From: a virus
Taxonomy: Duplodnaviria; Heunggongvirae; Uroviricota; Caudoviricetes
IMG/VR virus record: IMGVR_UViG_2737471835_000010
Location: 1 to 17,644 of that record
Strand: one strand, 5' to 3'
Length of the DNA: 17,644 nt
Under the pieces are notes generated by a model. That model had not been told where the DNA came from. It ran no database searches and saw nothing but the letters and a program-made list of their open reading frames with translations. Each line of letters starts with the position of its first letter. Position 1 is the stretch's first letter. Below, one piece after another: positions 1-17,644 of this stretch. A program made the translations under genes and the position numbers.

Positions 1-1053
1 ATGAATTCATCTAGCGCATTTGCTACGCCTGTTGTTGCCAACAATAGTCAACAAGTATTATCTGATTTGATTACTGCGCTTGAGCAGACCAATCTATATT
101 CATTTATTTCTCAGATAGCAACTGTGTATGGATTTCCACCTGTTAAAGGTGGAATGGATGCGGTTTTGAAGGCAATCGAGGCATCTATACAGAATCCAAC
201 AACTGCATTTCCTAATGCTACATTAAATTCACTTGAGAAAATGATCGATAGAATAATAATTTCTGGTAGTAACTATTATTCTATTGACGAAACACAAGAC
301 CCAAATTTCCAAAGTGTGATCCAACATGTTTTTAGTACAAGTGTAACTGATTCAAGGTATGAAAATTCTTATCCAAGAAAGTTATATGATGGGAATTCAC
401 TTGGGAACAATGTCAAAGGTCTTTATCTGACTAAATTAATTGATACTGGCGATGGCTTTGCTTTTATTTTCTCATATGTTTATAGTGTTAAGATTAAGGG
501 AAGTCGCGGTTTAGGACTATCGTATACCCCACAGCAACAATTTATAACAGTATTTGTTCCCCATAATAAAAATAGGATCGAGTATCGTCTTCCAAAAAAT
601 TTAGGGAAACGGGAGACAGCAAAAGCGCTTGCATCGGTGCGTAATAAATTTTTTGATATGCTCATCAGTACTAATAATACTATTCATTTCAAACAATTGA
701 ATTTTTATAATGTGATCAATAGCATTATTACTGATAGATCGTTCGGGAAAGCAGTTCAGATAATTTATGTTGGTTCTAATACAGGTTGTGATGCTAATGT
801 CATTGGCCGCAAAGATCCGACATATGAAGCTCGAGATGTCGAGATTACTAATAAGAAAAGAAATGATATTTATACACCACGTGCTGTAGCCGTAAGATTT
901 TACAGAAATAATGGTGACTTTACAGAATTGGGTCTAGATCCAAATAAGAAATCTTGGTTGGATGATAATTTTTGTGGCGAATTTTATGTTGATTTTCCTG
1001 AAGATACAATCTCATTAAATGGTTTAATTGAAAATGTCATCTCACGAAAATGA
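1..1053 (+). CDS. Hypothetical protein (350 aa), first gene of AT-rich three-gene cassette; no recognisable domain
   Basis: Long uninterrupted ORF starting with ATG at window position 1. Composition is markedly AT-rich and rich in Asn/Ile/Tyr/Phe codons compared with the prophage to its right. Its stop lies just upstream of, or overlapping, the next ORF, consistent with an operon. No Walker A, HTH or catalytic motif recognised by eye. Confidence 0.6.
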   Translation: MNSSSAFATPVVANNSQQVLSDLITALEQTNLYSFISQIATVYGFPPVKGGMDAVLKAIEASIQNPTTAFPNATLNSLEKMIDRIIISGSNYYSIDETQDPNFQSVIQHVFSTSVTDSRYENSYPRKLYDGNSLGNNVKGLYLTKLIDTGDGFAFIFSYVYSVKIKGSRGLGLSYTPQQQFITVFVPHNKNRIEYRLPKNLGKRETAKALASVRNKFFDMLISTNNTIHFKQLNFYNVINSIITDRSFGKAVQIIYVGSNTGCDANVIGRKDPTYEARDVEITNKKRNDIYTPRAVAVRFYRNNGDFTELGLDPNKKSWLDDNFCGEFYVDFPEDTISLNGLIENVISRK

Positions 1054-1069
1054 TAGAATCAAGGTCATA

Positions 1070-1465
1070 ATGATGCTTTTGTCTGAACAAAGGATATTAT
1101 TGGATGAAATGAAAGATATCTTTCCTGAAGAAGATATCTTTCTATTCAATAATGTTTTGGATTTCATTCAAAATAATTATGATAAAAATTATTACCCGAT
1201 TAATGTATTAAGGCAAGCGGCAGGCTGTGAATCGGACTCGGATTTGCTAAAGTTAGTCCGTTATTTTTGTGGTGCACATTCTAAATTATTTAATATAACT
1301 TATTGCTATTATGATTTTGATGGTGAAGAAATCCCTATTTCAGCAGAATGCTACTATAATGCTCTGATTAGTGATATTTCTCCGATCAGTTTATTGTCTG
1401 GGCGCGAAATAGATGATTTCGATGTTAATAACATTTCTTTTTACTGTATATTAAATGTCAAATAA
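1070..1465 (+). CDS. Hypothetical small acidic protein, second gene of AT-rich cassette
   Basis: The ORF track opens at 1028 with a TTG codon. I prefer ATG at 1070, which follows an AAGG Shine-Dalgarno-like motif (1061-1064) and lies after the upstream stop at 1051-1053. The 3' end overlaps the next ORF by 11 nt. No recognisable domain. Confidence 0.5.
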   Translation: MMLLSEQRILLDEMKDIFPEEDIFLFNNVLDFIQNNYDKNYYPINVLRQAAGCESDSDLLKLVRYFCGAHSKLFNITYCYYDFDGEEIPISAECYYNALISDISPISLLSGREIDDFDVNNISFYCILNVK

Positions 1466-2252
1466 TTTTCTTCAAAATATAACACCTGCCGAATTAGCCG
1501 CGCTGGTAAACTTGAAGCCATTCGATGAGGATGTGTTTGTACAAAGTCTATATGCCGATATAAATAATGCAATTAAGCATATTGAGAAGACTGCGGATAA
1601 ATATTATTCAGATGATGAAGATAAGATCACTAATTTACTGGTTTTATTTCTCAAAGGTGTTGGGTACAACGCATCTGAACAAACAAAATCTAATGGTTCC
1701 GTCGATATTACAGTTCAGGATCGTGATCAGAGCTTTACTTGGCTCGCTGAAGCAAAAAGAGGGAATTCGTATAATGGTGTCTTTGAAGGCATGTTACAGT
1801 TAGTAACAAGATATATTTCTGATGAGAAACATGCAGGTTTCTTTATTTACCATCAGAAACTTGATTCATTAAGTTACTTTAAAAATTGGTTCAGCTACCT
1901 TAGCTCTGGTGATTTTGAAAAATATAAGGCTATTTCTGATAGGCTTGATGAGTGCCGATATCATTTTAAAAAGAGCCCCATAGCAAATGCGTTTACCGGT
2001 GATGAATGTTATTTTGACTACAATATAGTTTCAAAAAAGGGAAAAGAAGTAAAGGTTAGAAATTTTATTTTAAGTTTGCACTATAACCCTGCTGATAAAA
2101 GTGGACGAGAGAATAAATCCTTGAAGGTCGGACAAGCGAAAATTTATGTCAATGAAGTGTGTGACAAGTGGTTTCGTGAGCAAGAACCTCCTGAAGATAT
2201 TGATAAATTCATGAATTCACTACAATTAGTATTCCCTGAACTATTTGAATAA
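1455..2252 (+). CDS. Hypothetical protein with PD-(D/E)xK-like nuclease motif (putative effector), third gene of AT-rich cassette
   Basis: 265 aa ORF with ATG at 1455 overlapping the upstream stop. The translation contains GSVDITVQDRDQSFTWLAEAKRG, i.e. an Asp on a hydrophobic strand followed about 15 residues later by E-A-K, the spacing typical of the restriction-endonuclease-like PD-(D/E)xK fold. This is motif-level inference only. Confidence 0.6.
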   Translation: MSNNFLQNITPAELAALVNLKPFDEDVFVQSLYADINNAIKHIEKTADKYYSDDEDKITNLLVLFLKGVGYNASEQTKSNGSVDITVQDRDQSFTWLAEAKRGNSYNGVFEGMLQLVTRYISDEKHAGFFIYHQKLDSLSYFKNWFSYLSSGDFEKYKAISDRLDECRYHFKKSPIANAFTGDECYFDYNIVSKKGKEVKVRNFILSLHYNPADKSGRENKSLKVGQAKIYVNEVCDKWFREQEPPEDIDKFMNSLQLVFPELFE

Positions 2253-2270
2253 GTGCGCTAACGCGCACTT
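2251..2270. terminator. Perfect 8-bp-stem hairpin (AAGTGCGC-TAAC-GCGCACTT) between convergent cassette and int
   Basis: Inverted repeat read directly from the sequence; followed on the plus strand by a T-rich run (TCTAATTTTTATTT). It sits in the 23-bp gap between the cassette stop (2252) and the int stop (2276). Confidence 0.5.
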
Positions 2271-2275
2271 AGAGT

Positions 2276-3262
2276 CTAATTTTTATTTAATGTTGGTGTG
2301 ATGCGTATTTTTCTATCATAAACCATGACTTGTGATTCAGTTTTGTGCCCACTAAATAGCTGCTTTTCTTTTGATGATCCTTCATAGTCAGAAATTCCTT
2401 TAGCTTTCAGATCATGAAATGTACAATCCAGAGGTCTTCCAAGATAGTTGGCTGCCGCTGTTCTTGCTTTTCGCCATGCCTCATTAAACCCCTTGTAAGA
2501 GTAACGCTCTCCATACATGGTTTTAATTACTGACCCTGTTTCCCCCCACGATCTGCAAATATCAACTGCCGCGCGCAGGCGATCAGTCCACGCCTTGATC
2601 TGCTTAACTCCCGTCTTGCCCTGCTGAATAAAAATTCCTTTATCCATTATCTGCGGCCAGTCCATTTTCAAGACATCGGATACCCTCGCTGCACATAAAT
2701 AAGCTATTTCCATTGCGGCTTTAACTGGCTCACTGGCGTGTTCATAAATCGCCATGTATTCCTCATCTGTGATGTAGCGATCACGCTTTGGTTTAGGGAA
2801 TTTATCTACTCCAACGCAAGGATTTCCAGGAACATATCCTCGTTGGTATCCCCAACGAAATACCCGAGACATTGAACTGTGCTCATGGTTAGCTTGGACA
2901 CGACTTTTCTTTCCTCTGGCATCCATATACCGCCTTACATGTTCTGGTCTAATAGTCTTTGCTTCCGCTTCGCCAAAAACAGCAAGGAGATATTTTTCGT
3001 GGGCTAGATAATCCTTTTGAGTTCGTGGTGCCAAATCTGCATAATCGGCACTATTGAGAAATTTCTTCCAAAGCTGGGCAAAAGTTATTCGTCTTTTTCT
3101 CCCCTCTACAATTTTTTCAAAAGCAACCCAGACATCTGCTTTTGTTGCATTGGCTGATGCAATTTTTTCTGTTGTTCCCCCTGGTTTCCAGTAGTAGCCA
3201 GAAGGGCGGAAATATACCCCCTTCGGCATCCATTCATTACCAGGTGCTCGTTTTCGACCCAT
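2276..3262 (-). CDS. int: Tyrosine site-specific integrase (lambda Int family)
   Basis: 328 aa. The N-terminus MGRKRAPGNEWMPKGVYFRPSGYYWKPGG resembles the arm-binding region of lambdoid integrases. The catalytic domain has the typical R...H..R...Y layout (e.g. HDLKAKGIS ... SGHKTESQVMVYDRK). It lies directly next to an xis-like gene. Confidence 0.9.
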   Translation of the reverse strand: MGRKRAPGNEWMPKGVYFRPSGYYWKPGGTTEKIASANATKADVWVAFEKIVEGRKRRITFAQLWKKFLNSADYADLAPRTQKDYLAHEKYLLAVFGEAEAKTIRPEHVRRYMDARGKKSRVQANHEHSSMSRVFRWGYQRGYVPGNPCVGVDKFPKPKRDRYITDEEYMAIYEHASEPVKAAMEIAYLCAARVSDVLKMDWPQIMDKGIFIQQGKTGVKQIKAWTDRLRAAVDICRSWGETGSVIKTMYGERYSYKGFNEAWRKARTAAANYLGRPLDCTFHDLKAKGISDYEGSSKEKQLFSGHKTESQVMVYDRKIRITPTLNKN

Positions 3263-3266
3263 AATT

Positions 3267-3491
3267 TCACTCTATAGCATCAAAGTTCATACCCGGAGTG
3301 GGCGAGAAACCTGCTGGTGGAGCCAAACGATGAATGGGATGATTTATATGAAACCAGGTCGTTTTTACAGAACCGTCCCTGCGTTCAATAAAAAAAATGC
3401 CATTCTGCGTTAAGACTTCTTTCTGTAGTGACTTTTGGGAAGACCCTGTCGCCTCTATCAGTTCTTCATCAGTCAGGAAGCGGTTGCTCAT
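3267..3491 (-). CDS. xis: Putative excisionase / small DNA-binding protein
   Basis: Small ORF ending 4 nt upstream of the int start. The ORF track starts at a GTG (3506); I prefer the ATG at 3491, which has GGAG 9 nt upstream. The call rests on position and size, not recognised homology. Confidence 0.45.
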   Translation of the reverse strand: MSNRFLTDEELIEATGSSQKSLQKEVLTQNGIFFIERRDGSVKTTWFHINHPIHRLAPPAGFSPTPGMNFDAIE

Positions 3492-3553
3492 GAGTCTTTT
3501 CTCCACTTAGCCCGCTGCACACGGGCAGTAATATCAAATTTCAGTCCTGATAA

Positions 3554-3769
3554 TTAATTTTGTTCTCTGGTTGCTACCTGTTTAATTGGCCTGATGCTGT
3601 CCAGGAGCAGTCGGCGGCGCGTATTTTCTGCAAAGTGGCGGCGTCCGGTTTCTTTGTGGTAAAACTCGTTTTTTCCGACGACCCACATCCGCTTTGTCAG
3701 GTGCAGTTTTTTTACCTGCGGACCGTTTCGGGTAATAACAATTCCTGTATGAGTTTTTATCACGCTCAT
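3554..3769 (-). CDS. Hypothetical small basic protein (71 aa)
   Basis: ATG at 3769 overlaps the upstream gene's stop (ATGA) and has GGAGA 8 nt upstream. It is co-oriented with the early-left operon. The plus-strand ORF 3560-3808 over the same DNA was rejected. Confidence 0.45.
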   Translation of the reverse strand: MSVIKTHTGIVITRNGPQVKKLHLTKRMWVVGKNEFYHKETGRRHFAENTRRRLLLDSIRPIKQVATREQN

Positions 3770-4128
3770 TTCTTAGTCTCCGGTGCTTTCGGCATTACTG
3801 CCCAGTGAGTGATATTGACGTTTTCAAGATCCCCGACCTGAAATGTCCACTGCCATTCTCCAGTTTCTTTTTGCCCCCATGTGTACCAGAGAGAACGCCA
3901 GCCAATCAGCCAGCCTTCTCCATTAGCATCAAATAACAGAACACTTTCATTTGCTGGCGGTAGTTCAGCTGACACTGGTATTACTTTGTTTTCCAGTGCT
4001 GCACATTTAGCTTCAAGCGTATCGAATTTACGTACCAGGTATTCAGCATCCGTTTCATTCACTTTCAGATCTCGCGGTACACATTTCCCGCGAAGAAACC
4101 CTTCCATTTCGAAAAGATTCATGCGCAT
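3766..4128 (-). CDS. DUF551-like phage protein (YfdS-like, 120 aa)
   Basis: C-terminal pattern WLIGW...ITHWAVMPKAPE matches, from memory, the conserved end of DUF551 proteins. GGAG lies 8 nt upstream of the ATG. Same length as E. coli KplE1 YfdS. Confidence 0.65.
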   Translation of the reverse strand: MRMNLFEMEGFLRGKCVPRDLKVNETDAEYLVRKFDTLEAKCAALENKVIPVSAELPPANESVLLFDANGEGWLIGWRSLWYTWGQKETGEWQWTFQVGDLENVNITHWAVMPKAPETKK

Positions 4129-4655
4129 TTGCGTAACTCCGATAACTCGTTGAAGCGTTCTATAAACATCCCATAGGCATGGCCTGGCGACAGTGGAATA
4201 ACTTTGAACATCTCTGTTGCCGGGATACCTTCCAGTACAGGCCAGAAAGAGCCATCATCAAGCCCGAGATCGCGGCGTTCGGTTGCCAGCATGATGAGAT
4301 CGGCATATTTCACAGGCGTGCTCATAACCGTGGGTAACCCGTATTTCTCACGGATTACGGCGTCTATTTTTTCTTCCATCCGTTTATAGTCAGGAAGAAG
4401 GCGTTTCAGCGGCGCGGGGATGTCCTGGCAATACGCTTCTGTTGCATCATGCATTAACGCTTCAAAAGCAAATTCCTGCGGCACCAGCTGGCTGCAAAGC
4501 ACCGCATGTTGGGCGACACTGTAGAAGTGTGAAAGATGACCGGCAAAGCGACAGATATTTGAAAGGGAAACCGCGATATCGTTAATCACGATGTCGTCTT
4601 TATTTATCCTGTCATAATAAAAATGCTTCCCGGAAAAAGTTTTAATAAATGACAT
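4119..4655 (-). CDS. HD-domain phosphohydrolase (YfdR-like)
   Basis: His...His-Asp signature (SVAQHAV ... LMHDATEAY) typical of the HD metal-dependent phosphohydrolase superfamily. The ORF track start at 4685 is a GTG; I prefer ATG at 4655 with GGAG 6 nt upstream, giving 178 aa, the length of KplE1 YfdR. Confidence 0.8.
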   Translation of the reverse strand: MSFIKTFSGKHFYYDRINKDDIVINDIAVSLSNICRFAGHLSHFYSVAQHAVLCSQLVPQEFAFEALMHDATEAYCQDIPAPLKRLLPDYKRMEEKIDAVIREKYGLPTVMSTPVKYADLIMLATERRDLGLDDGSFWPVLEGIPATEMFKVIPLSPGHAYGMFIERFNELSELRKCA

Positions 4656-4782
4656 TTTGTTCTCCGCGTATATGTGCTGCACCACGCTGAATTCTGGTAA
4701 AAGGAAGCCCTCACCATCCGGCGATTATTGAGTCAATTACGTTTCCATAAATGCCCCCGCAGGGGCATTTGCAGTAATGAAA

Positions 4783-5607
4783 TCAGGCGGTGAAAGTACC
4801 AATAAAGGTTTCTACTTTGCTGTCTTTGAATTTCTCAACAAGCAGATCACGAAATTCGTTAGCCATTTCTTCCTGCACCGCCTCCAGCTGAATAATGCGC
4901 AGAACCAGTACAGGACGATCGCCAGTGATAATGCTGAGGCGTAATTTAAATGGACGTTCTTTCAGACCTTCAAACGGAACGCATTTAAATTCAAATGCCA
5001 CTGGCATAATATCTTTGGTTTTCGCTTCGACAGACTCCATCAGGGAGCGTTTGCCGCTGAAGTCATTATCTTCAAAATCAGCGGTCTGGTTTGCTTCAAT
5101 CGTGATTTTACGGACAGCCGCAGCCGCTTTTGTTGCCTGAATAGCGTCACCATTAGCATCAAAGCCCACAAGGTAGTCGGCCCAGTCTTCAATCCATTCT
5201 GCCAGTGACTTCTGGGAATGACGCTCGCCATTAACAGACAACAGAGCAGAGAACGGTGCTGTCTTTTTCAGTTTGAGAGTGGCGGTGTTATCTGCGTGAC
5301 CTGGTTCATCAATAGTACCCAGGTTAAGCACACTGACGGCTCGCATATTATCGGCATCGATAAAGCAGCGGGTGCCTTCATCTGCAAGATCTTTAGAATA
5401 ACGGGTAAAGTCATCGATGCTGGCAGTGGAAAGCGCACCACGGAAACGGAAGCGATTTAAATTAAATTTTTCCAGATCATGAATGCGGAAATTCTCAGGC
5501 AATGCCACAGCATCGGCACCAATCTTACTGATAATTTCATTAACACCCTGAGCAGAAATAAGAGCATGGATTTGATTAATTGCGGTTGCGTCTAAGTTCT
5601 GAGACAT
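4783..5607 (-). CDS. YfdQ-like protein (DUF2303 family), function unknown
   Basis: 274 aa, the same length as E. coli KplE1 YfdQ and in the same gene order as yfdP-yfdQ-yfdR-yfdS. GAGGA lies 7 nt upstream of the ATG. Family assignment is from memory. Confidence 0.7.
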
Positions 5608-5672
5608 AATAAGTCCTCACTATATAAAGATATTCAGTGATGAGATAAATAATCAGTTAATTAAGAACGATA

Positions 5673-6045
5673 TTAATGACCTGCTGCGCGAAGTTTTCCG
5701 TCAGGTTCACCGGCAAGAGTCAGTAATTGTCCCTGGTCTTCCTGCAGAATAGTCAGGCGACCACCGCGATTGACATACATCGGCGTTTCGGTGGTGTCTT
5801 CTTCAGAAATTTTCCCGCGGTTAGTCGGGCGAACATATGAGAGTTTGTGTTTGATTTTCACACGGTTCTCATCAAACGGTTCGATTTCCAGGTTGAGCGA
5901 GACCTTACCTTTGGTTTTCGTGTTCATCACACCGGAAGCGACTTCACTGAGAACAGCGCCGATTTTGGTTTCAAATACGCCGCCGTCCAGCTCCCCGATA
6001 AATGCCTGCACATCAGTACTGCGTTCGCTAGCCATTTTGCTGCTC
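5673..6045 (-). CDS. Hypothetical early-left protein (YfdP-like)
   Basis: The ORF track extends to 6266, but the only start with a ribosome-binding site is ATG at 6045 (GAGGAG 7 nt upstream), giving MASERSTDVQAF... (124 aa). The upstream extension overlaps a highly structured non-coding region. Confidence 0.6.
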
Positions 6046-6083
6046 CTCATCATATCGACCCTGCAAGGTCGGTTGGTTTCTCC

Positions 6084-6172
6084 ACAAAACAGAGAAGAAC
6101 ACCTGCGGTGACTGCCGCCCGGATGGATTGGGTTATGAGCCCGTCGTCCGGTGATGCTCTTCTCTGTTTTGT
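6084..6172. repeat. 15-bp perfect inverted repeat (ACAAAACAGAGAAGA ... TCTTCTCTGTTTTGT) flanking a 59-bp GC-rich spacer
   Basis: Read directly from the sequence: arms at 6084-6098 and 6158-6172. It would form a long hairpin in the 5' leader of the YfdP-like gene, immediately downstream (minus strand) of the terminator at 6173-6218. Confidence 0.6.
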
Positions 6173-6235
6173 AAAAAGAGCGGTACCAGCCGGAAGCAAG
6201 GGTACAAACTGGTACCGCCAAAGCAGTGGCTGTTG
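6173..6235 (-). ncRNA. Candidate small RNA 3' end / intrinsic terminator in the early-left leader (possibly DicF-like)
   Basis: On the minus strand a 10-bp perfect stem (GCGGTACCAG / CTGGTACCGC, 6180-6218) is followed by UCUUUUU. The segment UUUGGCGGUACCAGUUUGUACCC resembles my recollection of the E. coli DicF sRNA. This is unverified memory; extent and identity are uncertain. Confidence 0.3.
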
Positions 6236-6643
6236 TGGTGGGGTTGTCACTCAGGCGTATGGTCAACCTGACAATCCGGTGTCCTCAACGGGGAAAGAGT
6301 AACCCCGCCATACTTACCGCCGCGCCATTTCGCGGATTACCACAACGCTGAGAGCACTTAGCCAGTTACGGCACCACACTTTGTCGCGGCTCCATAAATG
6401 CCCTCATCGTTGCACCCTGGTCTCTTCCCAGGCGTCAAACCGAATCGCCACGCTGGTTAGGCGTCTTATCAGCATCATCATTGACTTGCACATTCCGGCT
6501 ACCTGGTTTGTTTGCCCGAGCAAGGAGTGGATTGTCCCCTTTAACGTCCCCAGACCGCTAACGACGCATGTGCCATACGCCGTGTTACAACCAAATTTTG
6601 TTAGTACCTTGTTTGTTTGTCTGGAAAGAAAGATAAAATGAAG

Positions 6644-6682
6644 TTGCGCATTATGCAAGTGTTTTTGTTGCGAGATATGCAA
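6644..6682. promoter_or_regulatory. Putative OL operators: two 15-bp sites TTGCGCATTATGCAA and TTGCGAGATATGCAA
   Basis: Two copies of a TTGCG-N5-ATGCAA dyad-symmetric motif lie 9 bp apart just downstream of the cI terminator. A third copy (TTGCGCGTTAAGCAA) lies in the cI-cro intergenic region. Confidence 0.45.
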
Positions 6683-6692
6683 TTTAAAGGGT

Positions 6693-6717
6693 AATGAAAA
6701 GCCACCTTTGGGTGGCT
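6693..6717 (-). terminator. Rho-independent terminator downstream of the cI-like repressor
   Basis: Minus-strand hairpin AGCCACC-CAAA-GGTGGCT followed by TTTTCATT, 20 nt after the cI stop. Confidence 0.65.
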
Positions 6718-6737
6718 AATTGATGAGGAGGTAAGGG

Positions 6738-14026: not shown

Positions 14027-15079
14027 ATGAAAAATACTGTAAAAATAAACAGTGTTGATTTAATCAACGCTGATTGCCTGCATTTTATTCAGTCCCTGCC
14101 TGATGATTCCATTGACCTGATTGTTACCGATCCGCCGTACTTCAAGGTGAAACCCAACGGCTGGGACAATCAGTGGAAAGGGGACGAAGATTACCTTAAG
14201 TGGCTGGACCACTGTCTGGCCCAGTTCTGGCGGGTGTTAAAACCTGCCGGAAGCCTTTACCTGTTCTGTGGGCATCGCCTGGCATCTGATATTGAGATCA
14301 TGATGCGTGAACGTTTCAACGTGCTTAACCATATCATCTGGGCGAAGCCGTCCGGACGTTGGAATGGGTGTAATAAAGAAAGTCTGCGCGCATATTTTCC
14401 TGCCACAGAGCGCGTTCTGTTTGCTGAACATTACCAGGGGCCATATCGCGGCAAAAGTGACGGCTATGCAGCAAAAGAAAGGGAACTCAAACAGCACATA
14501 ATGGCACCGCTGATATCGTATTTCAGGGATGCTCGTGCCGAACTGGGTATAACGGCAAAACAAATTGCCGAAGCCACAGGTAAGAAAAATATGGTTTCCC
14601 ACTGGTTTGGTGCCAGTCAGTGGCAGTTGCCGAATGAGGCTGACTATCGGAAGTTACAGGCACTGTTTTCCCGTATAGCGGCAGAGAAGTTTCAGGAACA
14701 ACAACTGGAACAACCACACCACCAGCTGGTGGCATCTTATGATTCACTGAATCGTAAATATTCTGAATTGCTGGATGAGTTTAAATCTCTCCGGCGCTAT
14801 TTCTCCGTATCAGTCTCCGTGCCTTATACCGATGTCTGGATGCATAAACCCGTTCAGTTCTACCCGGGGAAACATCCGTGTGAGAAACCGGCGGATATGC
14901 TCAGGCAAATAATCAATGCCAGTAGTCGACCAGGTGATCTGGTTGCTGATTTTTTTATGGGATCCGGTTCCACAATAAAAGCAGCAATGGCGCTGGGGCG
15001 TCGGGCCTTAGGTGTTGAGCTTGAGTCAGAGCGGTTTAATCAGACAGTGAAAGAGATAAACGAGCTGGTGGGGAAATAA
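14027..15079 (+). CDS. DNA methyltransferase, beta-class amino-MTase (probably N6-adenine), orphan
   Basis: Motif IV DPPY (LIVTDPPYF) near the N-terminus and motif I FxGxG (DFFMGSGST) near the C-terminus, the order typical of beta-class N6A/N4C methyltransferases. No restriction endonuclease partner is adjacent. Confidence 0.9.
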
Positions 15080-15085
15080 TCTGGT

Positions 15086-15111
15086 GGCCACGTCAGGTGG
15101 CCTTTTTATTT
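15086..15111 (+). terminator. Intrinsic terminator-like hairpin (GGCCAC-GTCAG-GTGGCC followed by TTTTTATTT) after the methyltransferase
   Basis: Read directly from the sequence, 7 nt after the methyltransferase stop and upstream of the holin. Confidence 0.55.
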
Positions 15112-15146
15112 CCATTACACAGCACCCGCATCTGCGAGGTGGGGTT

Positions 15147-15362
15147 ATGAAATCCATGGATAAGTTAACAACGGGTGTCGCCTATGGCACCTCAGCAGGT
15201 AGTGCCGGGTACTGGTTTTTACAGTTGCTCGATAAAGTCACGCCCTCACAGTGGGCGGCAATAGGTGTGCTGGGTAGTCTGGTATTTGGCTTGCTGACGT
15301 ATCTGACAAACCTTTATTTCAAGATTAAAGAAGACAAGCGTAAGGCTGCACGGGGAGAGTAA
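15147..15362 (+). CDS. S: Pinholin, phage 21 S21 family (dual-start MKSMDK motif)
   Basis: [71 protein letters not shown] is near-identical in pattern to phage 21 S21 as I recall it. GAGGTGGGG lies upstream of the ATG. The ORF-track start at 15084 was rejected. Confidence 0.9.
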
Positions 15363-15366
15363 TTCA

Positions 15367-15717
15367 ATGACTCAAAACTATGAACTGATTGTGAAAGGGA
15401 TCCGCAATTTTGAGAATAAAGTTACGGTAACTTTAGCGTTACGGGACAAAAAACGTTTTGACGGTGAAATTTTTGACCTGGACATCTCGCTGGACCGTGT
15501 TGAAGGTGCCGCGCTGGAGGTTTATGAGGCAGCAGCCAGAAGGAGCATCAGACAGGTCTTCCTGGATGTTGCTGCCGGGTTATGTGAAGGGGATGAGCAG
15601 TCGCCGGAAAAGCGCCCCGTAATTTTAGATGCGCAGAATGTTTGGATAACCTACAAAGGAAAGCTACCAGGAAGAATTACTGGTTCTCTGAAGACTCCTC
15701 CGGAATCACAACCTTAA
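15367..15717 (+). CDS. Hypothetical soluble protein (116 aa) inserted between holin and endolysin
   Basis: Clean ORF 4 nt after the holin stop. No transmembrane segment and no recognised motif. Confidence 0.5.
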   Translation: MTQNYELIVKGIRNFENKVTVTLALRDKKRFDGEIFDLDISLDRVEGAALEVYEAAARRSIRQVFLDVAAGLCEGDEQSPEKRPVILDAQNVWITYKGKLPGRITGSLKTPPESQP

Positions 15718-15780
15718 GTCACTGACCGGAACAGATAAACCTGTCCGTGGGCAGAAACCGATAAATCCTGATAAATATCC

Positions 15781-16314
15781 ATGAACGCAAAAATCAGATA
15801 CGGCCTGTCGGCTGCCGTTCTGGCACTGATTGCCGTCGGTGCGCCCGCGCCTGATATTCTCGACCAGTTTCTGGATGAAAAAGAAGGTAACCACACAACG
15901 GCATACCGCGATGGGTCCGGCATCTGGACCATCTGTCGGGGTGCCACGATGGTGGATGGAAAACCCGTTTTTCCCGGTATGAAACTGTCGAAGGAAAAAT
16001 GCGACCAGGTCAACGCCATTGAGCGTGATAAGGCGCTGGCATGGGTGGAGCGCAATATTAAAGTACCACTGACCGAGCCACAAAAAGCGGGTATCGCGTC
16101 ATTTTGTCCCTATAACATTGGCCCCGGTAAGTGTTTTCCGTCGACGTTTTATAAGCGGCTGAATGCTGGTGATCGTAAAGGTGCATGCGAGGCGATTCGC
16201 TGGTGGATAAAAGATGGTGGGCGCGATTGCCGCATACGTTCAAATAACTGCTATGGACAGGTTATTCGTCGTGACCAGGAAAGCGCATTAGCCTGTTGGG
16301 GGATAGATCAGTGA
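15781..16314 (+). CDS. R: SAR endolysin (T4-lysozyme-like glycoside hydrolase, R21-like)
   Basis: N-terminal weakly hydrophobic Ala/Gly-rich signal-anchor-release segment ([18 protein letters not shown]), followed by a catalytic E...D...T region ([20 protein letters not shown]). Located right after the pinholin, as in phage 21. Confidence 0.9.
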
Positions 16315-16778
16315 GCAGAGTCGCCGCGATTATTTATGCTCTGGTTATCTGCATCATCGTCTGCCTGTCGTGGGCGGTCAATCATTACCGTGATAACGCC
16401 ATCGCCTACAAAGAACAGCGTGATAAAAAAGTCAGTGAGCTGAAGCAGGCGACCGCCACCATTACTGACATGCAGCAACGCCAGCGTGCTGCTGATGTAC
16501 TCGATGCTAAATACACGAAGGAGTTGGCTGATGCGAAAGCTGAAAATGATGCTCTTCGGCGCAAGCTTGATAATGGTGGTCGGGTGCTCGTCAAAGGAAA
16601 ATGCTCTGTGCCATCCTCAGCCGAAACCTCCAGCGCCTCCGGCATGGGCAATGATGCCACCGTCGAACTCTCTCCAATTGCTGGACGAAACGTTCTCGGT
16701 ATCCGGGACGGAATCATCAGAGACCAGACAGCACTGAGAACGCTTCAGGAATACATCAGGACGCAATGCCTTCGATGA
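16311..16778 (+). CDS. Rz: Rz i-spanin
   Basis: GTG overlaps the endolysin stop (GTGA), with GGGGGA 7 nt upstream. The ORF track offers a TTG at 16296. N-terminal TM segment ([17 protein letters not shown]) then a charged coiled-coil-like region. It contains the embedded Rz1 ORF. Confidence 0.8.
16531..16737 (+). CDS. Rz1: Rz1 o-spanin (lipoprotein) embedded out of frame within Rz
   Basis: AAGGAG 8 nt upstream of the ATG. Lipoprotein signal with lipobox LIMVVGC, followed by a proline-rich segment ([16 protein letters not shown]). Entirely inside Rz in another frame. Confidence 0.75.
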
Positions 16779-16952
16779 TAGCGATAATTTTACTCATCAT
16801 CCTTCACATCTGGCTCTGTAGACAGGGTGGTGATCACTTCTGGAGTAAATCCAGATTAAACATCTCATTGCTGATGCTTGATATTGAGCATCTGGCGCGC
16901 AGTAAGGGGCTGCGTTGAGATAAGAGCCAGTTCATTACAAATACCAGGATTT

Positions 16953-16978
16953 AGCCTCGCATTCGCGGGGCTTTTTAT
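16953..16978 (+). terminator. Intrinsic terminator-like hairpin (AGCCTCGC-ATTC-GCGGGGCT followed by TTTTAT)
   Basis: 8-bp stem with one G-U pair plus a T-run, in the non-coding gap between Rz and rha. Confidence 0.5.
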
Positions 16979-17120
16979 ATCTGAATTTCACAGCGCATCT
17001 CACGCGCATATTAACGAGAGCCTTTCAGTAAGCGAGCCTGAGAAATGCCGTTATAGGTGGCGACCTCTCTCGGGCGGCTTTTCTGTGAGACAGGCTCACT
17101 TTCTAAAAGGTAAAGACGCT

Positions 17121-17644
17121 ATGAATAATCATTCAGTTATTCCAGCCTTCGACTTCCGAGAAATGGTGCAAGCCAAAAACGGAGAGGTCGTTACCACATC
17201 CAGAAAAATTGCCAAGTACTTCGGCAAGCGACACGGTGATGTTCTCAGGAAAATCGAGCAGGTTAAGGCTGATTGCTCGCGTGAGTTTAGCCAACGCAAT
17301 TTTCGTCGGCTGATTATATCGATGAGCAGGGCAAGGTTCGCCCGATGTACAGCCTGACGAAAGATGGCTGGATCATGGTTGTGATGGGGTTCACCGGGAA
17401 AGCTGCTGCGGCAATCAAGGAGAGCTATATCGCAGCATTCAACTGGATGGCAGAGCAACTGAGCCGCCGCATGGCAATTGGCGAAGAAATGCAGCACCGC
17501 TACGCCATCAAAGAAACACGCTCAAAGCTGAAAGGTACGATCGGCAGTCGGTTAATGAACGAACGGAAGAAAGAGAAGCGTGTCCTGGCTGTCGAGCATG
17601 AATACATCTTGCAGGTGACACAGCCTGAACTGCTGATTAATTGA
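17121..17644 (+). pseudogene. rha: Rha-family phage regulatory protein, interrupted by a frameshift near 17300-17312
   Basis: The N-terminal part (MNNHSVIPAFDFREMVQAKNGEVVTTSRKIAKYFGKRHGDVLRKIEQV...FSQRNF) is in one frame and stops at 17355-17357. The expected continuation (ADYIDEQGKVRPMYSLTKDGWIMVVMGFTGKAAAAIKESYIAAFNWM...) is in another frame that ends at 17644. A single-base indel in or near the TTTTCGTCGGCT segment explains the break. Confidence 0.6.

Follow-up and report, generated by a model that had tools for sequence, protein, structure and literature searches.

A phage-borne three-gene cassette with a predicted PD-(D/E)xK nuclease as its plausible effector

Introduction

Several described defence systems rely on a PD-(D/E)xK nuclease that is controlled by partner proteins, among them HamA in Hachiman, LmuA/Cap4 in Lamassu and NucC in CBASS and type III CRISPR. 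Avs and bNACHT proteins, for their part, usually carry their effector at the N-terminus. Here we describe a cassette of three genes, A, B and C, in a 17,644-nucleotide stretch of Caudoviricetes DNA (positions 1 to 17,644 of IMG/VR record IMGVR_UViG_2737471835_000010, hereafter the window). A sequence-only reading of this DNA had proposed that the third protein, C, contains a PD-(D/E)xK nuclease motif and is the likely effector of the cassette. The three genes are co-directional and overlapping, B sharing 20 nucleotides with A and 11 with C:

1..1053, plus strand: gene A, 350 amino acids, first cassette gene, unannotated family; the AlphaFold2 (AF2) model shows helices in its N-terminal part, besides two alpha+beta (TBP/RdgC-like) domains
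1034..1465, plus strand: gene B, 143 amino acids, second cassette gene, unannotated family; annotated coding sequence WP_072100812
1455..2252, plus strand: gene C, 265 amino acids, predicted PD-(D/E)xK (restriction-endonuclease-like) nuclease, ATG start

The described system closest in outward form is Rst_3HP, a phage-encoded three-gene cassette from the P2 hotspot that has no recognisable domains and protects against phage P1 (Rousset et al. 2022, PMC9122126). It is the only named "three hypothetical proteins" phage system, and the present cassette is likewise phage-borne, made of three genes and devoid of recognisable domains, with proteins of 350, 143 and 265 residues as against 333, 359 and 227. 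The two are not the same system: with Hp1, Hp2 and Hp3 of E. coli E1114 (Table S2A of PMC9122126) as queries, hmmsearch and BLAST gave bit scores near 0, and hhalign gave probabilities of 0.1–0.8% over all nine pairings.

With the nuclease-effector systems named above, the cassette would share the logic of a PD-(D/E)xK nuclease under the control of partner proteins, but the partners differ, A and B having no recognisable NTPase or signalling domain. Hachiman, Lamassu and CBASS were rejected as identities, since neither A and B nor their homologues have a PADLOC or Pfam match to the HamB helicase, the LmuB SMC-like ATPase or a CD-NTase.

Results

Gene C carries a conserved nuclease motif

Both peptides singled out by the sequence-only reading, S82-V-D84-I-T-V-Q-D89 and W96-L-A-E99-A-K101-R-G, are present in the open reading frame (ORF) at 1455–2252. 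D84 and E99 are exactly 15 residues apart, and C is indeed the third cassette protein, as the last of three overlapping co-directional genes. Such a motif alone is no better than chance: when C was shuffled with its composition preserved, 64% of the shuffles contained the loose pattern D-x(8-25)-hydrophobic-[DE]-x-K, and 2.7% a stricter version. Independent support was therefore required, and conservation supplies the excess over chance.

A word-indexed search of 5.8 billion proteins gave only 15 close clusters for C, all from Enterobacterales. Across 16 close homologues, D84, E99, K101, the stretch D54-E55-D56-K57, Q115 and Y120 are all invariant. An exhaustive hidden Markov model (HMM) search of 1.84 billion representatives (50% clustering, cut-off E ≤ 1e-3) yielded 514 relatives, mostly of 205–235 residues. 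In an alignment of 91 relatives with 23–53% identity to the query, the sole invariant columns are E55, G81, D84, E99 and K101, and Q115, R119 and Y120 are conserved in at least 90%. As judged from these alignments, the invariant columns are the pattern expected for an E...D...ExK active site. The corresponding features are:

1617..1619, plus strand: E55 codon (in D54-E55-D56-K57), invariant acidic residue opening alpha1 (91 relatives; AF2 helix 55–69)
1704..1706, plus strand: D84 codon, the "D" of PD, at the start of beta2; invariant in the close, mid-distance and 91-sequence alignments
1749..1757, plus strand: E99-A100-K101 codons, the (D/E)xK of beta3 (strand 95–102), with E99 (1749–1751) and K101 (1755–1757) invariant and A100 nearly so
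1785..1814, plus strand: E111-G112-x-L-Q115-L-x-T-R119-Y120, nearly invariant alpha2 signature after ExK (family alignments)
2088..2102, plus strand: P212-A-D214-K-S216 (PxDKS), near the C-terminal end of short family members (family alignments)

The predicted fold of C places these residues in a restriction-endonuclease-like core

The AF2 model of C (m3b3282411063, secondary structure by DSSP) contains helix 55–69, strands 72–75, 85–88 and 95–102, helix 106–120 and strand 126–133, with a mean predicted local distance difference test score (pLDDT) of 81. These elements form the alpha-beta-beta-beta-alpha-beta core that had been proposed as a check of the prediction:

1617..1853, plus strand: nuclease core of C, residues 55–133 (alpha1, beta1, beta2, beta3, alpha2, beta4; DSSP on the AF2 model), pLDDT mostly 74–92

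In the model, E55 opens helix 55–69 and E99 and K101 lie within strand 95–102. The former has a position that we take to be that of the first metal-site glutamate of BamHI- or Hjc-type enzymes. The conserved aspartate had been described as standing at the end of a hydrophobic strand; its conservation is borne out, but D84 is found immediately before strand 85–88, at the start of beta2, which is the canonical position in PD-(D/E)xK proteins. The model is structurally similar to bona fide members of the superfamily, the top matches being type II restriction enzymes. No PDB entry was significant in the Foldseek search with C (best E-value 0.03), and the weak list consists mostly of proteins with the same fold (YaeQ, Hna, HindIII, OkrAI, EcoRV, Hjc, BamHI and FokI).

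Predicted fold and conservation of the catalytic residues thus support the reading of C as a PD-(D/E)xK nuclease. C very probably has a restriction-endonuclease fold, as modelled, and is probably catalytically active. We predict it to be a metal-dependent nuclease of a previously unannotated family, with a site made of E55, D84 and E99-x-K101 and backed by the EG..Q..RY helix.

C differs from the restriction enzymes that it resembles. Enzymes of the BamHI/BglII/BstYI/OkrAI type share 11–15% identity with C and were found by neither sequence nor profile search of PDB chains, both of which returned noise only. They also lack the N-terminal helical extension of C and its PxDKS-bearing C-terminal region. 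In this motif, P212, D214 and S216 are invariant in the close and mid-distance alignments, and P212 is conserved in at least 90% of the 91-sequence set. It lies in a low-confidence loop of the AF2 model (pLDDT below 50 at residues 214–218). In short family members (about 210–225 residues) the protein stops a few basic residues past PxDKS. The motif may serve as an interface with A or B, as a substrate contact or as a modification site.

C belongs to a family without assigned function

In PHROGs, C matches phrog_9664 (1.3e-44), a family without function, and RefSeq labels the gene "hypothetical protein" in an E. coli chromosome with 100% identity. When the 91 relatives were scanned singly against Pfam, weak or sub-threshold matches appeared for PDDEXK_9 (7/91, best 5.4e-5), Mrr_cat (2/91) and HSDR_N (1/91). 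The PADLOC scan of the same set gave PDC-S54 for 33 (best E-value 5e-13), with a few matches to LmuA, HamA or REase_II. The PDCs of PADLOC owe their candidate status to being embedded in known defence loci, a prediction by "guilt by embedding" (PMC12881386). Window C itself is not matched by the PDC-S54 HMM (PDLC05036); with a third of its relatives matching, it therefore represents a divergent, longer (265-residue) branch of the same superfamily-level group. A literature search with PDC-S54, the protein accessions, phrog_9664 and RdgC combined with defence terms found no papers in the library searched, and a language-model defence preprint does not mention the C family.

Genes A, B and C form an obligate operon in temperate phages

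Megablast of the cassette against a phage collection gave no match. With tblastn, relatives of C were found in Stx1a-converting phages, in a Vibrio Vinavirales (tectivirus-like) element and in Moraxella, Klebsiella and Acinetobacter phages. BLAST shows each of the three Vibrio proteins to be homologous to its window counterpart, and in this element the cassette adjoins the integrase gene. The Stx1a phages carry a divergent A-B-C (350, 130 and 221 residues) flanked by the Q antiterminator gene and stx1A and oriented against both (L003 3454–5561 in Stx1_499, LC567825, and likewise in six further Stx1a phages). Their A and B proteins are recognisable by iterated profiles only, BLAST having missed both.

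More distant loci were retrieved with a degenerate DNA pattern for EAK-x9-EG-x-L-Q-L-xx-R-Y. It gave 47 genomic loci, of which an HMM confirmed a C-family ORF in 45; the loci belong to Cyanobacteria, Bacteroidales, Beta- and Gammaproteobacteria and Streptomyces. Wherever upstream DNA was available, an ORF of about 350–370 residues is followed by one of about 135–150 residues and then by C. Iterated profiles built from window A and B recovered 32/32 of the ORFs at the A position and 38/40 of those at the B position. The same pattern found 30 viral contigs in IMG/VR; all 28 with enough upstream DNA encode A, B and C in this order, and a B homologue is present at 29 of the 30. Annotated B-C junctions overlap or abut (−11, −11, −4 and 0 nucleotides).

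Carriers of the operon include E. coli, Salmonella, Klebsiella-type phages, Pseudomonas and Vibrio prophages and the Stx1a-converting phages. Prophages of the Pseudomonas syringae group (L083/L084 8610–9936, and L085) have A-B-C genes for 381–417, 116 and 202 residues that are convergent with the phage integrase and excisionase (Exc) genes, a layout like that of the window. Ectopseudomonas mendocina also has A-B-C, with an integrase gene about 1.6 kb downstream. In the P. syringae-group prophages, genes for cytosine and N6/N4 methyltransferases are found a few kb deeper inside. We conclude that A-B-C is an obligate three-gene operon and accessory cargo of temperate phages.

This linkage sets C apart from BamHI-type restriction systems, as C is always tied to A and B and has no cognate methyltransferase. 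A type II restriction-modification pair was rejected: there is no methyltransferase gene in or beside the cassette (window, E. coli L37, Stx1a and Vibrio loci), nor one as a regular neighbour in the 47 genomic loci. It also goes beyond PDC-S54, with which the common ground is the HMM match in relatives of C. PADLOC models C only, with no model for A or B, whereas C stands here in a strictly conserved three-gene operon.

Among 112 ORFs flanking the genomic loci, phage integrases are the commonest family (n = 8). Scattered among the others are genes for type I, II and III restriction-modification, a Pycsar cyclase, GajB-, HerA-, SoFic- and PbeA-like proteins, other PDCs and HipA. This neighbourhood fits mobile accessory cargo with a defence flavour.

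The partner proteins A and B have no recognised relatives

A and B gave no match against Pfam, PADLOC or NCBIfam models or against PDB sequences, and single scans of 73 of their homologues against Pfam returned single-member noise only. The best structural match of A is RdgC; it is weak, and the remaining matches are generic TBP-like alpha+beta domains. The AF2 model of A has low confidence over residues 250–330. At the sequence level A is unrelated to RdgC, homology having been rejected at an hhalign probability of 0.05%. Only N234, G249 and R278 are invariant in A. The alignment of B (39 homologues) has no invariant column at all, which points to a binding or adaptor function and away from catalysis. 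We therefore propose that A is a sensor or nucleic-acid-binding partner and B a non-enzymatic adaptor or inhibitor. With A and B lacking family matches and B lacking any invariant residue, C is the only component with an enzyme-like invariant motif.

The nuclease core of C is reused on STAND NTPases

A C-type core (profile positions about 24–159) also forms the C-terminus of several relatives of 700–1200 residues, where it follows an NTPase of the NACHT or NB-ARC type and repeats of the HEAT or TPR type. Fusions with NACHT and HEAT, of 850–1230 residues, are P0064, P0070, P0074, P0091, P0100, P0103, P0163 and a Xenococcus protein (L014 309–3902), and P0068 combines NB-ARC with TPR. They occur in Cyanobacteria and other lineages, and most of those checked keep the full E-D...D...EAK...EG..Q..RY signature. 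The core, fused to STAND scaffolds with its motif intact, is therefore a portable output module, which supports the idea of an effector. The fusions hold the core only, suggesting that residues 160–265 or so of C, including PxDKS, are dedicated to its partnership with A and B.

The likeness to Avs/NLR-like STAND proteins lies in this use of the core as a portable effector domain. The nuclease of the fusions is C-terminal to the repeats, unlike the usual placement of Avs and bNACHT effectors. Identity of the cassette with an Avs/NLR system was rejected, the window cassette having no STAND (NACHT/NB-ARC) NTPase, which is present only in fused relatives such as P0064, P0070 and P0091.

The cassette lies just inside attL of a lambdoid prophage

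The window is 100% identical to part of the E. coli MB15 chromosome, where a lambdoid prophage has integrated next to tRNA-Ser and mtfA; the window covers its left arm. The cassette is found just inside attL, between tRNA-Ser and the convergent integrase gene, and its GC content is about 33%, against 45–55% across the remaining prophage. Two features lie at its downstream border:

2251..2270, no strand assigned: perfect hairpin with an 8-bp stem and a 4-nucleotide loop (AAGTGCGC-TAAC-GCGCACTT), read directly from the sequence
2276..3262, minus strand: prophage tyrosine integrase gene, convergent with the cassette

The cassette segment is carried by 16 of 5426 complete E. coli genomes (about 0.3%), and two of the 16 matches are only about 78% identical. 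In one of these two, E. coli L37, the same tRNA-Ser site is occupied by another prophage, which bears the cassette (L002 9761–13664) in the cassette-integrase layout of the window. Judged from L37, prophage integrase and cassette appear to move together as a module. The early region of the L37 prophage encodes a DGQHR-domain (DndB-like) protein, a ParB-like protein and rdgC. In E. coli E-ge-1 (NZ_CP158503.1 1184349–1188425) the cassette-integrase match is split by an IS1B (IS1) insertion. The cassette is probably inactivated in this strain, which suggests that it is dispensable.

The hairpin, between the convergent C and integrase genes, takes in the final two bases of the C stop codon. It is a possible bidirectional terminator, and was missed by the consensus terminator scan because it has no adjacent T-run. 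The promoter and terminator scan around the cassette found nothing above chance, with promoter-like sites no more numerous in the region than in shuffles. The top sigma-70-like site (TTGAGA-16-TATCAT, 10/12) lies outside the window in the spacer between tRNA-Ser and gene A, 54–81 nucleotides upstream of A (L001 7920–7947). Transcription of the cassette could start here, from the prophage end.

The window also contains a gene for a 350-residue DNA methyltransferase (14027–15079), flanked by the gene for the Q-like antiterminator ydfT (12667–13419) and, on the lysis-cassette side, by that for a lambda-family holin; in Stx phages this moron slot is occupied by stx. The methyltransferase gene is in the late region, 12 kb from the A-B-C cassette, and is apparently an orphan, with no annotated adjacent endonuclease.

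Discussion

A mechanism for the cassette

C is plausibly the effector of the cassette, as the sequence-only reading had it, because it has the only enzyme-like invariant motif among the three proteins and because the same domain is fused to NACHT-HEAT STAND NTPases. In the best-supported mechanism, which we infer and towards which we lean with some reserve, a complex of A, B and C with C as effector acts in phage exclusion or abortive infection. C would be the catalytic output of the operon, and A, with its RdgC/TBP-like fold, would bind nucleic acid or a phage component. In an uninfected lysogen, A and B in complex with C would keep it inactive or untargeted. Infection by a second phage would change the complex and release or direct the nuclease, which would then degrade phage and/or host nucleic acid, resulting in superinfection exclusion or abortive infection. 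Going further, A-B-C might be an unrecognised and widespread three-component anti-phage system, in which A and B license the nuclease C without any NTPase, modification enzyme or second messenger, and which serves as competitive cargo of temperate phages. We put this broader proposal forward tentatively, as possible though doubtful.

Several observations weigh against the phage-exclusion mechanism. C has no match among Pfam, NCBIfam or PADLOC models (the last at E ≤ 1), and its relatives are all named "hypothetical protein" in databases save for one "Restriction endonuclease" in UniRef. Defence genes near the cassette are scattered, within a qualitative sample of 112 neighbours. Furthermore, the cassette contains neither an NTPase nor a methyltransferase through which self-damage might be avoided.

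Alternative explanations

The main rival, which we regard as unlikely, retains an active nuclease and places it in a toxin-antitoxin or addiction module stabilising the prophage or mobile element, with C as toxin, B as neutraliser and A as regulator. The translational coupling of B and its lack of conserved catalytic residues speak for it. Yet a 350-residue third component is present in every locus, which is unusual for a simple toxin-antitoxin pair; the same nuclease domain is borne by NACHT-HEAT STAND proteins, which are typical immune-sensor scaffolds; and relatives are listed by PADLOC as defence candidates through their embedding in defence loci. Since toxin-antitoxin and abortive-infection functions overlap, this is only partly a rival. 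Quite improbable, too, is the idea that C, though of restriction-endonuclease fold, works by itself as a type II/IV-like restriction enzyme or is a DNA-binding module without catalysis, with A and B as unrelated neighbours. Type II restriction enzymes are indeed its best structural matches, PADLOC models its relatives as the single-gene candidate PDC-S54, and one relative bears the UniRef name mentioned above. Against this, A and B homologues stand beside C at essentially every locus examined, across phyla, and no methyltransferase gene is in or adjoining the cassette. A non-catalytic relic is hard to reconcile with the invariance of all four catalytic positions.

There is also little likelihood that the cassette serves phage DNA metabolism (recombination, replication restart or genome processing), with A as an RdgC-like DNA binder and C as a structure-specific nuclease or resolvase. 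RdgC, the best structural match of A, is a recombination-associated DNA-binding ring, and Hjc-type Holliday-junction resolvases, which share the fold of C, are in its weak Foldseek list. However, A has no sequence relation to RdgC (hhalign 0.05%), and the cassette is not part of the early and recombination operons but sits at attL, convergent with int, its GC content being foreign. In unrelated phages it takes up different moron slots (Q-stx1 in the case of Stx1a phages, next to the integrase gene in the Vibrio element). No more than 0.3% of complete E. coli genomes carry it, and in one of these the cassette-integrase segment is split by IS1. A motif that arose by chance in a protein without nuclease function is hardly credible: the loose motif does occur in 64% of shuffles, window C has no Pfam or PDB sequence match and Foldseek gave nothing significant, but this explanation is largely refuted by the AF2 fold, the structural matches and the conservation. 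Our preference remains with C as the nuclease effector of an A-B-C complex acting in phage exclusion or abortive infection.

Significance

What is new is less the nuclease, which adds a family to a very well-known superfamily, than the strictly conserved phage-borne triad, its partners without known relatives and its adjacency to stx1. Nuclease-based defence cassettes are common and hundreds of candidates exist, so the finding is of use but no surprise. Should the prediction hold, a family of more than 500 clusters at 50% identity gains a biochemical function, and PDC-S54, modelled in PADLOC by C only, is really one gene of a fixed three-gene operon. With A and B having no known relatives, the control of a nuclease without NTPase or methylase becomes a directly testable question. 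The cassette is carried by prophages of several genera and by Stx1a phages beside their toxin genes, and is therefore a cheap, well-defined candidate mechanism of phage exclusion in medically relevant lysogens. If this is true, the copy in Stx1a phages could influence which phages superinfect Shiga-toxin lysogens.

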